Assembly: GCA_965248635.1 (NCBI GenBank)
Contig: OZ252114.1
Span: 4,751,250 to 4,815,249, forward strand
Direction: 5' to 3'
Length of the DNA: 64,000 nucleotides
Origin: Acidobacteriota bacterium
GTDB lineage: Bacteria > Acidobacteriota > UBA6911 > RPQK01 > CBDAPI01
The position numbers and the translations under genes were made by a program. The notes under the pieces were generated by a model. That model worked only from the letters and a program-made list of their open reading frames with translations, had not been told where the DNA came from and searched no databases. The first letter of the stretch is position 1; each line of letters begins with the position of its first letter. Positions 7,115 to 21,272 of the stretch are shown here, piece after piece.

Positions 7115-7299
7115 GTAATCCACCACAAACGTCCTAGCCCGGATAATTCACAAATTTTCTACTGCAGCGTGAGAATCTCCCGCCCTGACTGCGTTACGCT
7201 CGGTCGGCCTCCTCGGCGTACTGCACGAGTACGCCTGCGGGGGCCTCGGTCGCAAGCCTTGTCAGAACGGGTCTTCCCCCGCTTCGCTACGAAAATTTA

Positions 7300-9283
7300 G
7301 TAGAGTCGAGATGTGGCGCGGTGGTTTAGGAAGAGCCTATCCGTTGCCGACCCTTTCGTCTGTCGGTGCCTCACTAGCTCGTCCATGCTCCGTTTCCACA
7401 TCCCGCTCGTCGAACCGGACGTGCGGTTTTCCCGCATCCGGCTCTCGGACAAGGTCTTACGCTTTCGCCCACGGAAGGTCGCGAGTCCGCTCGGTCAGTC
7501 GTACCAGCCCCAACCTTTCGTACAGGAACTGGTCCGGGAACTGCCGCGTTCCCTTGCTGCCTTGCTTCTTGTGTTTTCGTCGCAACCACTGACGAAGCCT
7601 CCATCGGGTGTGGGCATCCACCGCCCGATAGGCTTTGCTGACCCCACCCAAGCAGAAGTAATTGGCCCATCCCACCAACATTCGGTTCAGACGGGCCACC
7701 TCTTGCTCGGCTGACCTGAGCCCACTCCAGGGCCGCGTCTCCCTGTGGATTTCGCGACAGATCTTGCCGATCGACTTCTTCGAAGGTCGAGTCCCCATGT
7801 AGGGAACCCCGCTCCTCGCTCGATGACAGATCCCCAGTGTGTAGCCCAGAAAGTCCAAGCTCTCTTCCGGCAGCCGTCTCACACAGGTCTTGGTCTCGTT
7901 CAGTTTCAGGCCCAGACGCCCCAGTATCTCCCGCGTTGCTCGCAGAGCCTTCCCTGCTTCGCCTTGACAGCAGATCACAAAGTCGTCCGCATAGGACACA
8001 ATCCTGCCCTGACACTGCTTCGGTCCCAGTTTCCTCCACCCCATTATGAAGCGACGAAAGTACAGGTTGGCTAAAAGGGGTGAGATCGGAGACCCTTGTG
8101 TGGTTCCCCTTTTCCCTCCTCCTTTCGGTTCGTCCTTGTCCTTCTTGGAGACCTCCACAACCGGGGTATTCAGCCACATCTTGATCAGCTTTAACATCTG
8201 CCGATCGCAGATACGACGCGCCACCGATTGCATCAGCTCCTTCCGCGGGATACTGTCAAAGTAGCCACTCAAATCTGCATCCACCACCTCTCGGTGGCCT
8301 GTGTTGATCAGAGCGTGCACCGCTTGAACCGCATCCTGCGCGCTTCGTCGGGGGCGGTAGCCATGTTGTTCCGGCTGCAGATCTGCCTCGAAGATCGGCT
8401 CGATGACTAGCATCGCCGCCGTTTGCACCACCCGATCCTTGATCGTCGGCACTCCCAGCGGGCGCTTTCCTCCGTTGGTTTTGTCAATCCACACCCGGCG
8501 CACTGCCGCCGGCCGGTAGCTTTTGCTTTTCAGCTCCCTCGCCAGTTCGCCCAGCCACTTCTCTCGTCCGCGCGCCTCAATGTCTTCGAAGCTCTCTCGG
8601 TCCACCCCCGCTGCTCCGCCATTGGCTTTGCATTTCCGGTAAGCGAACTCCAGAAAGTCTTCTCTCCACACCTTGTCGTACAGCTGATGAAAGCGGCGCT
8701 CGGGCTGCTCCTTCGCTTTGGCGTACAACGTCCTTTGCAGCTTCCCAATCTTTTCCGGAGTTTTCAGCCCCATTCGGGTCAATCTCCGCGCTGTCGCTTC
8801 AGCAGACGTCTGCCTCGAACTCAGGCCCCTTCCCTCCAGCGGGGTTAGCCGCTTTCCTCAGTAATACGAGCCTGTCCGCCACCCCTGCCCGCCCGACCTG
8901 TCCCTCGCGGGTTGCCGGTTGAGGACCGTGCGGCCGTCCTCGCCGACAGGGGCTTCCCGTGTTGCTTGCGATTTCCTCTTAAGTGCGTGCCGTCGCCATT
9001 ACCCCGGCGGAACCAACGGGTGCTGTTGCTCGACTTCCCCGCTGACGGCGGCCTTCCCTGTAATTCAGCCAGGTCGGCTTCCGCATTGCCCTTTTCGAGG
9101 CCTGCTTAGCGTTCACTACTCGTTACGGCCTGCACCTTCGCCAAGTCGCCTAACGCGACCCTCTGCACCGAAGGCTTCAGCAGATTCGTTACCTCCTCTA
9201 CTGCTCCGATTGCTACCGGCTGGAGCGACAGTTGCCGGGTGGGTTTTGCACCCACTGAAAATCGCCGCCTTTTCACGGCGCAC
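7300..9283 (-). mobile_element. group II intron (ribozyme plus intron-encoded RT/maturase)
   Basis: 5' end GTGCG at 9283; domain V GAGCCGGATGCGGGAAAACCGCACGTCCGGTTC (7444-7412) with AGC triad; long domain VI ending CTCGACTCTAC at 7300. Confidence 0.93.
7457..8782 (-). CDS. ltrA: group II intron reverse transcriptase/maturase, no endonuclease domain
   Basis: AAGVD, RPLGVPTIKDRVVQ, QGSPISPLLANLY, YADD, FLGY, domain X GWANYF. Confidence 0.95.
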   Translation of the reverse strand: MTRMGLKTPEKIGKLQRTLYAKAKEQPERRFHQLYDKVWREDFLEFAYRKCKANGGAAGVDRESFEDIEARGREKWLGELARELKSKSYRPAAVRRVWIDKTNGGKRPLGVPTIKDRVVQTAAMLVIEPIFEADLQPEQHGYRPRRSAQDAVQAVHALINTGHREVVDADLSGYFDSIPRKELMQSVARRICDRQMLKLIKMWLNTPVVEVSKKDKDEPKGGGKRGTTQGSPISPLLANLYFRRFIMGWRKLGPKQCQGRIVSYADDFVICCQGEAGKALRATREILGRLGLKLNETKTCVRRLPEESLDFLGYTLGICHRARSGVPYMGTRPSKKSIGKICREIHRETRPWSGLRSAEQEVARLNRMLVGWANYFCLGGVSKAYRAVDAHTRWRLRQWLRRKHKKQGSKGTRQFPDQFLYERLGLVRLTERTRDLPWAKA

Positions 9284-9296
9284 TGAATAATCCGGG

Positions 9297-9707
9297 CTAG
9301 GACCTCACGCGCACCGGTTTTGAAGGCGGCTTTTTCACCAGTCCCTCCATCCGGCCTTCCAACCCATCGGCGCCCAGCTGGCTGCGCAGGAATCCGATCA
9401 ATTCCTCAACCTCTTTTTGCATTGTTTCCATCTTGTTCCGCATGTTGAGGATGACTTCAACTCCGGCCAGATTGACACCCAGTTCCCGGGTGAGATTCAG
9501 GATGACGGCCAGGATTTCGAGATCCTGGTCGGTGTAGAAGCGGGTGTTCCCTGCGCTCCGCGAGGGACTGAGGAGACCCTGCCGCTCCCACGCCCGCAAG
9601 GTTTGAGGATGGAGCTCGTGCATTCTGGCTACCGCTCCGATCGTGTACCCGACTCCTTTTCCAGCCATCTCTCCATCCAATCGCTTCGAGCCGCTGTCCC
9701 CGCTCAT
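9297..9707 (-). CDS. hspR: MerR-family heat-shock repressor HspR
   Basis: YTIGAVARMHELHPQTLRAWERQGLLSPSRSAGNTRFY...LGVNLAGVEVIL; directly follows dnaJ. Confidence 0.85.
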   Translation of the reverse strand: MSGDSGSKRLDGEMAGKGVGYTIGAVARMHELHPQTLRAWERQGLLSPSRSAGNTRFYTDQDLEILAVILNLTRELGVNLAGVEVILNMRNKMETMQKEVEELIGFLRSQLGADGLEGRMEGLVKKPPSKPVRVRS

Positions 9708-10813
9708 CTCAAACCAAGCTGCTCGCGGGGATTCTCGGGATGAAGCTTCGCCAGCTCTTCCAGAAGCTCTTTCGAGCGCCCGCTCGCGGATGCCGGTAGG
9801 ACAATTTTGACACGGACGATCTGATCGCCCCGGGCCCCGCCCTTTGGTCCGGATGCTCCCTTTTTCTTAAGACGGAATTTCTGGCCCCCTTGCGTGCCCC
9901 CAGGAATGTGAAGCCGCGCCTTTCCACTCACCGTCGGCACTTCAATATCGGCGCCCAGGACAGCTTCCGTAACCGTCACCGGGATCTCGCAGTAGATCTG
10001 GTTGCCTTGACGCCAGAATAGGTCGTGAGACTCCACCTCCACGACCAGGTAGAGATCGCCTGCGGAGCCACCCTGCACGCCACTGTTACCCTTTCCTGGA
10101 ATGCGGACGCGGGAGCCGGTATTGACTCCAGCGGGGATCCTCACGGTAAGCGCCTCCGAGACAGCCCGGAAACCGGATCCCTTACAGGCAGAGCAATCTC
10201 CAGCCTGGATCTGACCGGAACCCCCACAACTTCCACAGGTCGTGCCAAAGGTCATGGTCCCATGCCGCTGCTGCGTCTGGCCCGAGCCCCGACACTCGGA
10301 GCAGGATTTCGCGTGTGAACCCGATCGAGATCCCGATCCGTGGCACTTGTCACAGGCCACCTGGCGGTGAAAGTTGAGGCGCTTTTCCACGCCGTTCACC
10401 GCCTCCAGGAAGGGGATCTTGATCTGGTATTCGAGGTCCGGGCCTCTCTTCGGACCGCTGCCCGACTGGCGGGGCCGGCGGCCGAAAAGATCCGAGAATA
10501 TCTCGCCGAAGCTGCTGAAAGGGGATGAGGCCGGCTGGCCGCTTTCGAAGCCCTGAAAGTCAAAACCCCGGGCGCCACCTCCCGGAAACCAGCCGCTGGC
10601 ATCCGCCTGCCCGTAGCGATCGTACGCTTTTCGCTTTTCCGAGTCCCCCAATACTGAATAGGCCTCCTGAATGTCCTTGAAGCGATCTTCGGCGCCCTTG
10701 TCACCCGGGTTGATGTCCGGATGATACTTGCGGGCCAATCGCCGGTAGGCTTTCTTGACCTCTTTGTCGGAAATCCCTTTCTCGAGGCCCAGGGTCTTGT
10801 AGTAGTCGCTCAC
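9704..10813 (-). CDS. dnaJ: chaperone DnaJ
   Basis: J-domain HPD, G/F-rich region, four CxxCxGxG repeats. Confidence 0.96.
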
Positions 10814-19520: not shown

Positions 19521-19554
19521 GGTCCCATTATACCGGGCCCGGCCAGGGCTCTAG

Positions 19555-21205
19555 CCCGGATTATGCAAGAACCGTAATCGGGTATTGAAAAAGACTTGAG
19601 AAGTGGCCCAAATCGGAAGCGGGCACGTGTGACCGGTGGATTTGCGAAGAATATCGGTTGGCGAGGGGGTTGAAATGCTTGGGGGAGTGAATTTCAGACA
19701 GATCTGGGCCTCGATGTGTGTAGGAAGCGGTTTTTTGGGGAGCTGGGAGAGGCTAGCTGGAGTTGAGGCGACTCAAGACGAGGTGGAAGAGGGGTTGTTC
19801 GGGAAAGGCTGAGGAAAGATGGACCCAGATGCGTCGAGTGGTTTGTCGGATCCGGGCCCCAATCTTGAGGACCCGACGACGTAAGGTTTCGATTTCGAGC
19901 TTGTGCCAGGGGGTTCCGTGCAGATAGTCGCGCAGGCGCACGAACATCTGGTAAGCCAGTGCATGCAGGAGGAGTCGAAACTGGTTGGCCAGAAATCGAT
20001 GACAGCTGAGTCGGTCCATGCTCAGATGATTCTTAAAGGCCTTGATGAAGTTCTCGGTCTGCCCTCGGTTTGTGTAGTGGTCATAAAGTGATTGGGAGCA
20101 GAGATCGTCCCGGTTGGTGACTACAAAGCGACGGTTGATCCCACGCTGATCGACCTCCACTTTGACAATGACGCGACGGGATCGATCCCAGCTGTGGGCT
20201 CGATAAAGAAACTCGTCAAACTGACGCTGTTTTTCCTCCAGCTCAACGAACCTCAGCCGAGTCGAATCCAGCAGCGGCTCGACCACTCGCTGCAGGCGAG
20301 GGTTTCGACTTAACCCAATGACATATTGGAGTTTATTCTCTTCACCTTCACAGAACTCGTAGAGCCGAGGCGTGGCAAAGCCGCTGTCGGCCCGAATCTC
20401 AATCTCGACATCCGTCCCCACTCCTTGTCGGATGGCCTCCACGACGCGCTTCAAAACGGGCACGATGTGAGAGGCAGCCCCCTTGTTGCCAGGTCTCAAC
20501 ATGGCACACACCAGGTCTCCCGTGGCGGCATCGAAGATCAGCAAAGGATGCAGAATGTGGTTTCGGTAATACCCGTGGTAGAAGGAGAACTCCTGTTGGC
20601 CGTGAGTGTGGTCATCGGTACTGTCCAGATCCAGGATGATCTTGCTGGGGCGTCTCTTCTTCAGGGAGCGCACATAACGGCCTAGCAGCCACCGGCTCAG
20701 ACGCATCAGATCCTTCTTGGTGACGGAGTTCTCCAAACGGGAGAAAGTCGGCTGGGTGGCCAAGTCGGGATCGCTCTCGGGCAACTGATCACAGACTGTC
20801 TTGAGCATCGGATCCGAGCGCAGCGTATCGGCGTCGTTACAGTCTTCGTAGCCGGCCACGATCTGCAAGACTCGTTGTCGGATCAACTTCAACAGGTCAT
20901 GACGAATGTAGCGTTGGTCTCGACTTTCCGAAATACAGGAACTGAAGCCCTCGCACAATCGATGTTGACGATCCAGCGATCCAAACAACAACCATCCTGC
21001 GTCGGAAGTGAGGCTCCCCCCATCAAAACGAGCCGTGATGTTTCTGTGGCTATGAAATGGCAGGGTATTCTGGCAGACTGTTTTTGACATTGCCGTAGCT
21101 CCTGTTTAGGGTCTTTGTTTCTCTAAACCCTTTTATATCAGAGAGCTACGGCCTTTTTTCTGGGCCCAAATCTCACTTGAATTTAGATCTCCTGCATAAT
21201 CCGGG
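19555..21205 (-). mobile_element. IS1380-family insertion sequence (1651 bp)
   Basis: Terminal IR CCCGGATTATGCA(A/G)GA; CTAG direct repeats at 19551-19554 and 21206-21209. Confidence 0.95.
19753..21090 (-). CDS. IS1380-family DDE transposase
   Basis: FDGGSLTSDAG, LDLDSTDD..HG.QE, RADSGF, YTNRGQTENFIK. Confidence 0.95.
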   Translation of the reverse strand: MSKTVCQNTLPFHSHRNITARFDGGSLTSDAGWLLFGSLDRQHRLCEGFSSCISESRDQRYIRHDLLKLIRQRVLQIVAGYEDCNDADTLRSDPMLKTVCDQLPESDPDLATQPTFSRLENSVTKKDLMRLSRWLLGRYVRSLKKRRPSKIILDLDSTDDHTHGQQEFSFYHGYYRNHILHPLLIFDAATGDLVCAMLRPGNKGAASHIVPVLKRVVEAIRQGVGTDVEIEIRADSGFATPRLYEFCEGEENKLQYVIGLSRNPRLQRVVEPLLDSTRLRFVELEEKQRQFDEFLYRAHSWDRSRRVIVKVEVDQRGINRRFVVTNRDDLCSQSLYDHYTNRGQTENFIKAFKNHLSMDRLSCHRFLANQFRLLLHALAYQMFVRLRDYLHGTPWHKLEIETLRRRVLKIGARIRQTTRRIWVHLSSAFPEQPLFHLVLSRLNSS

Positions 21206-21272
21206 CTAGGGATGTTGGAGGGGGCTCCCACTCTCGGCTTCTCCGACAAAGAGACGGGCCGGAGGCCGCCTC

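Follow-up and report, generated by a model that had tools for sequence, protein, structure and literature searches.

The stretch of DNA analysed here (the window) is 64,000 nucleotides (nt) long, corresponds to positions 4,751,250 to 4,815,249 of contig OZ252114.1 in assembly GCA_965248635.1 of an Acidobacteriota bacterium, and carries a mobile intron lodged in the terminal repeat of a miniature inverted-repeat transposable element (MITE). Domain I of the intron belongs to Rfam family RF02003 (D1D4-4; 9257-9118, 106.3 bits against a cut-off of 49), domains V and VI belong to RF00029 (7446-7300, 45 bits against a cut-off of 40), and the protein of its open reading frame (ORF) matches the group II reverse transcriptase/maturase model TIGR04416 over residues 40-401 of 438 (335.3 bits, cut-off 300). 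Judged by its ribozyme and protein families, the element is a group II intron. The features on which the argument depends are listed below, where exon-binding sites (EBS) in the intron pair with intron-binding sites (IBS) in the exons and IS stands for insertion sequence.

7300 to 9283, minus strand: complete group II intron, 1984 nt, both ends fixed from the sequence (5' GUGCG at 9283; 3' ..UCGACUCUAC ending at 7300)
7457 to 8782, minus strand: reverse transcriptase/maturase ORF in domain IV, 441 amino acids from TTG, likely start ATG at 8773 (438 amino acids)
9057 to 9073, minus strand: Id3-like hairpin CCUG-GCUGAAUUA-CAGG, intron nt 211-227, read from the sequence and backed by stem covariation
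9067 to 9061, minus strand: EBS1, UGAAUUA, intron nt 217-223, from covariation of loop and 5' exon
9284 to 9290, minus strand: IBS1, UUAUUCA, the final 7 nt of the 5' exon, junction read directly
9088 to 9091, minus strand: EBS2, GGGC, intron nt 193-196, within a single-stranded stretch flanked on both sides by a conserved helix
9294 to 9297, minus strand: IBS2, GCCC, exon positions -14 to -11, inside the repeat core TAGCCCGG
8999, minus strand: EBS3, A, intron nt 285, in GGGGUA[A]UGGCG on the unpaired 3' side of the stem Id internal loop
7299, minus strand: IBS3, U, the first 3'-exon base; all seven readable 3' junctions in the host genome begin with T
9284 to 9304, minus strand: occupied MITE terminal inverted repeat, GGTCCTAGCCCGGATTATTCA, read inward
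7131 to 7299, unstranded: remainder of the ~190-bp MITE; its unoccupied left repeat, GTCCTAGCCCGGATAATTCA, spans 7131-7150, and the next base, 7151, is C
19550 to 21210, minus strand: autonomous IS1380-family element, 1.66 kb, ends ..CCCGGATTATGCA, transposase ORF 19753-21090

It is very probable that the loop of the Id3-like hairpin is EBS1 of an active, IIB-like, endonuclease-less group II intron that targets the repeats of IS1380-type MITEs. The anatomy of the intron, three covariations, the census of insertion sites and the near-identity of the copies carry this reading. Without its ORF the ribozyme is compact (~660 nt), its 3' end UCGACUCUAC is conserved among homologs, and domain VI has an A positioned 7 nt before that end, in CGACUCUAC, a candidate branch point that may be bulged, to judge by eye. 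The closest solved structure to the encoded protein is the GsI-IIC reverse transcriptase (E 1.1e-49), and the absence of an endonuclease domain is judged by length, with about 37 residues following the end of the TIGR04416 model, rather than by an HNH profile scan.

A first-pass annotation of this stretch, made from the letters alone, had placed EBS1 in the loop of a CCTG...CAGG hairpin about 215 nt from the intron 5' end. The hairpin is indeed present (window 9073 to 9057), and the pairings given for its loop are correct: UGAAUUA matches TAATTCA of the unoccupied left repeat (7144-7150) at 7/7 positions, UUAUUCA of the occupied repeat (minus strand, 9290 to 9284) at 6/7, with U.U at -6, and UUAUGCA of the autonomous IS (19550-21210) at 5/7, with mismatches at -6 and -3. 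As a match within one sequence this does not exceed chance, since a 7/7 partner for TAATTCA (Watson-Crick plus G.U) turns up in 181 of 2000 mononucleotide shuffles of nt 1-510. In addition, 12 of the 655 7-mers of the ribozyme pair at 6/7 or better with the real 5' exon, and the minimum free energy (MFE) fold of nt 1-494 includes the hairpin with an unremarkable stability (z -1.30). Such figures speak for a coincidental match, the true EBS1 lying elsewhere in domain I. The homologs leave this alternative with almost no credibility.

Homologs were gathered in two ways. A search with RF02003 through 151 genomes of the same phylum found introns in 27 at E <= 0.001, and in 15 above the cut-off (both tallies take in the host genome and the unpublished G049, whose sequence was left unused), and a protein search gave 80 loci in named metagenome-assembled genomes (MAGs) from Acidobacteriota, Planctomycetota, several proteobacterial groups, Thermoleophilia and others. 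With a domain I profile, 84 hits could be aligned, and intron 3' ends were placed with an nhmmer profile. Two of the checks put forward with the EBS1 proposal, folding of domain I (here as a consensus) and a search for EBS1-IBS1 covariation, agree with it. The hairpin, as GCCGA-CCNG-(9 nt)-CNGG-GAAGGC, stands at the same place in all aligned homologs; RNAalifold predicts it from 36 sequences with compensatory changes in the stem (third pair CG in 20 and UA in 12, fourth pair GC in 27 and AU in 3), in a consensus where 23 of 32 predicted pairs show double changes.

The loop itself changes together with the exon. Loop nucleotides 3-9 pair in register with exon positions -1 to -7 among the homologs, with a cognate mean of 6.04/7 against a non-cognate mean of 3.19 over 68 unique intron/site combinations. 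When each of the 35 distinct loops is represented once, the mean is 5.8/7 against 3.03 +/- 0.21 for shuffled partners, a value that none of 10,000 shuffles reached; clear switches include CGCAAGC with GCUUGCG, ACUAAAU with AUUUAGU, CAGAGAU with GUCUCUG and UUUGAGA with UCUCAAA. In the window intron, moreover, UGAAU occurs only once within nt 1-510. Over 52 intron/site pairs, positions -1 to -5 are paired in 94-98% of cases against 73% for -6 and 58% for -7; the EBS1 core thus spans 5 bp, and little is lost by a mismatch at -6. Contigs from sequencing runs X1, X5, X15 and X16 all leave their exact match to the window at 9072, at the EBS1 loop, and continue with other loops; to judge from the contigs alone, communities holding many EBS1 variants would give contigs that diverge at this point.

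The first-pass annotation saw no EBS2, yet one exists. Among homologs the stretch reads CUCGAAA-N-NNNN-NAUGYGG, a variable middle of 4-6 nt between constant flanks, and in most lineages this patch is complementary to exon positions -14 to -10. Across 37 distinct patches the pairing score is 3.82 against 3.07 +/- 0.12 for shuffled partners, and none of 2000 shuffles attained it. The window intron pairs GGGC with GCCC, the loci L070, L103 and L104 pair AGGC with GCCU, and further combinations are CGGGC/GCCCG, CCGAC/GUCGG, GUGC/GCAC, GACC/GGUC, AACAAU/GUUGUU and CGGCAA/UUGCCG. A local hairpin in place of EBS2 was also considered and rejected: the MFE fold does pair GCCU with GGGC, but these pairs are not preserved in G110 or G106.

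For EBS3, the column of nt 285 is unpaired in the consensus fold, which places it in the internal loop where IIB introns usually carry this base. In 33 of 38 lineages, nucleotide 285 is Watson-Crick complementary to the base that opens the 3' exon, against 18.6 +/- 2.3 in shuffles, none of which (0/10,000) reached 33; the count drops one tandem-intron junction and includes 8 rows that end one profile position short. The window intron has A285 with an exon U, and a close relative (G015) has G with C. A rival column, 203 (nt 194), also follows the +1 base; since nt 194 is part of the EBS2 patch, IBS2 accounts for this.

The sequence read by these three sites is the end of a transposon. The 5' exon ends ..GGUCCUAGCCCGGAUUAUUCA and the 3' exon begins UAAAUUUUCGUAGCGAAG..; because an inverted copy, ..TGAATTATCCGGGCTAGGAC, follows ~150 nt beyond the start of the 3' exon (7131-7150 of the plus strand), the insertion point of the intron lies 17 nt into one terminal repeat of a non-coding MITE of ~190 bp, whose inverted-repeat partners are 93% identical across 29 nt. 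The body of this MITE recurs at four other intron sites in the host genome and at three more unoccupied ends. Its repeats share CCTAGCCCGGAT.AT.CA with the autonomous IS, and the transposase ORF of the latter matches the IS1380-family model NF033539 (378 bits, cut-off 180). IS1380-family ends, for example those of ISEcp1, begin CCTAG and resemble the ends found here. By eye, a clean target-site duplication of the MITE was not seen, and the 5' exon has no strong hairpin.

The host genome (5.43 Mb, one contig) contains six full-length copies of the intron, all at 100% identity as printed: two measure 1984 nt and reach the full score, and four measure 1985 nt with slightly lower scores. A copy truncated at the 5' end, another truncated at the 3' end and several fragments accompany them. 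The near-identity of the six, together with the truncated copies, points to recent mobility. All nine intron 5' junctions of the host genome follow a repeat end of the (T/C)AGCCCGG.. type; those that can be read have the form (T/C)A(G/A)CC(C/T)GG.. N ATTCA, except for one remnant of 79 nt that follows ..GGATCATGCA. The first-pass proposal that the ribozyme is specialised for IS1380-family ends is thus supported for the window intron by these nine junctions and by the NF033539 transposase. Both arms of the MITE harbour introns, as do two other short elements, and each intron-bearing MITE has its intron at one end only. The cumulative GC skew is noisy (minimum ~5.2 Mb, maximum ~3.06 Mb), and with some four or five of eight copies co-oriented with replication we draw no conclusion on strand bias.

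The copies might instead have multiplied mainly because the IS1380 transposase moved an intron-bearing MITE, with EBS-IBS pairing serving splicing alone. Six of the eight occupied ..ATTCA ends are in the window MITE family or have an unreadable 3' exon (L002 and L007 lie in other short IS1380-type elements), the ~56-59 autonomous IS copies could act in trans, and only one end per MITE is occupied. Against this, both arms of the MITE are occupied, with 3' exons ..TTTTCGTAGCGAAG in L001, L003 and L004 and ..TTTTCTACTGCAGCG in L005 and L006; L002 and L007 lie in different elements; and the 5' exons vary at -6 and elsewhere while the introns are near-identical. Since near-identical introns thus stand beside differing exons, arms and elements, at least five independent insertions into pre-existing ends are needed, and multiplication by transposase is improbable as the main route.

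Among ..ATTCA ends of the host genome, eight are occupied and five empty (8/13). The autonomous IS contributes 59 left and 56 right ends (~56-59 copies), which read ..ATGCA and then A or G, and the census found the intron at 0 of these 115. Their lack of occupation fits two mismatches, one to EBS3 at +1 and one to the core of EBS1 at -3, where A faces G. Of the five empty ..ATTCA ends, three carry C at +1, among them the left repeat of the window (C 7151), whereas T stands there in every occupied end with a readable 3' junction. Position -6 may be T, C, G or A across the occupied sites. The left repeat does pair at 7/7 with EBS1; it is not the best site, however, because its +1 C cannot pair with A285 and -6 is weakly constrained.

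Sister introns in related MAGs provide a counterpart. Those at L143, L064 and L067, ~98% identical to the window intron, differ from it at 7, 12 and 10 of 330 domain I positions, all carry A-to-U changes at nt 219 and nt 223, and follow 5' exons that end ..GGATTATGCA, ..GTAAATGCA and ..GGATCATGCA, respectively, all of them ..ATGCA ends. U219 can form a wobble pair with the G at -3 of ATGCA. By sequence comparison, then, the change in EBS1 is a natural compensatory switch, amounting to a natural experiment in which two near-identical introns, one EBS1 base apart, match a one-base difference between transposon ends. The earlier suggestion that the -TGCA variant is a poorer target gains indirect support both from occupation (0/115 vs 8/13) and from the A219U sister introns in ..ATGCA ends. 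The model predicts ..ATTCA with T well above ..ATTCA with C, and ..ATGCA after both.

The 79-nt remnant (L010, C1:3040249-3040343, minus strand) is an intron 5' end, 97% identical, that follows a ..GGATCATGCA end, the target type of the sister intron in related genomes. Outside the window, at C1:~4905600-4907556 on the minus strand, lies a second and different RF02003 intron (L014; 123.5 bits) that starts GUGUGUCCAG and whose loop, UGUCUCC, is complementary at 7/7 positions to the end of its exon, ..GGAGACA. At L064 (position 2862, OZ240092.1), an intron of the L014 type begins directly after ..GGAAAACCGCACGUCCGGUU, the 3' half of a domain V of the window type; as far as the sequence goes, one intron has thus entered another's catalytic domain, a twintron-like arrangement.

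In the mechanism that we propose, the excised intron RNA, together with its reverse transcriptase/maturase, would read a DNA target through EBS1, EBS2 and EBS3. EBS1 UGAAUUA (core UGAAU) would pair with exon positions -1 to -7, EBS2 GGGC with GCCC at -14 to -11, and EBS3 A285 with U at +1, giving a combined target GCCC-GGA-UNAUUCA followed by U, almost the whole outer 17 nt of the MITE terminal repeat plus the next base. The intron would reverse-splice into the repeat and then be copied into DNA (retrohoming), presumably with endonuclease-free priming, and the same pairings would set the splice sites in an RNA that we take to be capable of splicing. The ends of the autonomous IS (..AUGCA, then A or G) would not be used by the window intron. 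By analogy, this would be standard IIB-type retrohoming, with the target and the paired variants of intron and repeat as its modestly new parts. The literature, searched at the level of listings and abstracts, yielded no group II intron lineage that targets the terminal repeats of IS1380 elements, and the work on RmInt1 that it brought up showed no targeting of terminal repeats. With EBS1, EBS2 and EBS3 all mapped, the analysis provides the full natural target code of an intron from a little-studied lineage, compact and without an endonuclease, and the small size and simple code may be of interest to builders of gene-targeting tools.

Several points weigh against this interpretation. The occupied site pairs with EBS1 at only 6/7 positions, not 7/7, and the intron is absent, for no evident reason, from C1:2490772 and C1:3725281, which match best among the empty sites with T at +1. 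EBS2 is here only 4 bp; the G039/G069 lineage fits it poorly, with 2.5-3 bp at -10 to -8 and an ambiguous partner; and EBS2-IBS2 is reported to be dispensable for the in vitro self-splicing of IIE and IIF introns (PMC3753933). The role of EBS2 in the window intron would therefore lie in DNA targeting. Five of the 38 lineages have no Watson-Crick EBS3 pair (two G.U, two U/C, one C/U). The homologs are related to one another, so that the shuffle tests overstate their independence. Finally, no ligated-exon junction was seen in the contigs of public runs (Logan contigs, which are silent on expression). One low-depth contig of run X1 (depth 3.99) links 7183 and 9284 through 17 letters of other sequence; this single contig looks like an intron-less variant of the MITE.

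Exon recognition in the window intron is of the IIB type: EBS1-IBS1 from an Id hairpin loop, EBS2-IBS2, and a single-base EBS3-IBS3 at +1. The closest functional analogue is RmInt1 of Sinorhizobium meliloti (class D, IIB-like). ISRm2011-2, in which RmInt1 resides, belongs to the IS630 family, and the RmInt1 site is not known to lie in its terminal repeat; the window intron, by contrast, has its site within the terminal inverted repeat, 17 nt in, of IS1380-type elements and their MITEs, and the 3 nt between IBS2 and IBS1 are a further difference. Published work describes IIB introns as using EBS1, EBS2 and a one-base EBS3 (PMC4075523). As in the window intron, RmInt1 has an endonuclease-less reverse transcriptase/maturase, reads its target through these three sites and has its natural home in another mobile element, its target being within ISRm2011-2; Watson-Crick EBS3/IBS3 pairs are described in all selected retrohoming events of this endonuclease-less intron (PMC4075523). 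Related introns of the RmInt1 kind likewise diverge in target specificity, according to summary accounts (PMC4615759, PMC4181065).

The window intron also resembles IIE and IIF introns (Cl.be.I2, Pe.th.I2, Ge.ur.I1) as these are summarised (PMC3753933, PMC3552965): it is compact (~660 nt, where 450-700 nt are reported), and shares an IIB-like layout, EBS1 and EBS2 in domain Id, and an ORF without endonuclease. This likeness, drawn from descriptions, is a lead; the same summaries do not report targeting of IS ends for IIE and IIF introns (PMC3753933, PMC3552965), and the acidobacterial intron So.us.I2 is classed there as F (PMC3552965). Like IIC introns (O.i.I1, B.h.I1, GsI-IIC), the window intron is small and endonuclease-less, and its nearest solved protein is the GsI-IIC reverse transcriptase. 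IIC introns are outlined as having no EBS2, a short EBS1 and insertion after terminator or attC hairpins (PMC3753933, PMC4075523). Unlike them, the window intron has an EBS2, a long EBS1 of 5-7 bp and, as its target, a defined sequence rather than a hairpin; on these grounds it falls outside IIC.

How far the tie to IS1380 extends beyond the window intron is a separate matter. Conceivably, the whole clade of the D1D4-4 type, endonuclease-less and IIB-like, is a dedicated parasite of IS1380-family termini, with EBS1, EBS2 and EBS3 co-evolving with repeat variants and sister introns partitioning ..ATTCA and ..ATGCA ends, a tentative idea that we would not call probable. Of 46 homolog sites, 11 have MITE-like repeat partners (10 of 50 in a stricter search), similarity to IS1380 transposases was found in the 3' exons of L081, L135 and L097 and upstream of L071, and repeat partners or IS1380 transposase genes accompany at least six EBS1 types (UGAAUUA, UGAGAAA, UGAGAUU, UGCCACA, UGGAAUU, AGUAUUU). 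In 52 of 68 distinct exon ends, TA(G/N) stands at -16 to -14 (+/- one base). Sites of the same lineage are 75% identical at -17 to -1, 33% at -45 to -18 and 42% at +1 to +40, a pattern that fits element termini and would equally fit target recognition combined with a distal motif read by the protein.

Indeed, beyond close relatives the shared (C)TAG at about -17 to -14 may be just such a protein-recognised distal motif, with the wider clade being no IS1380 specialist, an explanation whose chances we put not far short of even. At 35 of the 46 sites there is no inverted-repeat partner in 200-1340 nt of 3' flank, just three 3' exons show transposase similarity, several lineages have site similarity limited to about -17 to +12, as target recognition alone would give, and intron proteins are known to read distal 5'-exon bases (PMC4075523). 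The spread of repeat partners and transposase genes over at least six EBS1 types counts against it, as do the frequency of TA(G/N) and the onset of between-site similarity at about -17. Were the clade-wide tie real, the introns would ride IS elements and MITEs for their spread, and splitting a repeat 17 nt from its tip might modulate transposition. It would provide a clear case of one mobile element specialised on the recognition ends of another, and would bear on how introns spare their host and spread with transposons.

Two arrangements within the clade may be recorded here. At L130 (~2990, CAVRAR010000006.1), two introns lie head to tail, ..UCGACUCUAC being followed directly by GUGCGCCGUG. 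L044 (G069:C7:194900-197500) is an ORF-less derivative of 1073 nt with intact ends, and its EBS1 is that of the full-length G039 copies.

Upstream of the window intron, on the same strand, an ORF for a MerR-family regulator (PF13411, 67.8 bits; 9297-9707, minus strand) follows dnaJ (9704-10813, minus strand). Its stop codon TAG (9299-9297) is inside the terminal repeat of the MITE, which thus landed on the 3' end of the dnaJ-MerR operon. Read-through from this heat-shock operon, which runs in the same direction as the intron, could be a source of intron RNA.

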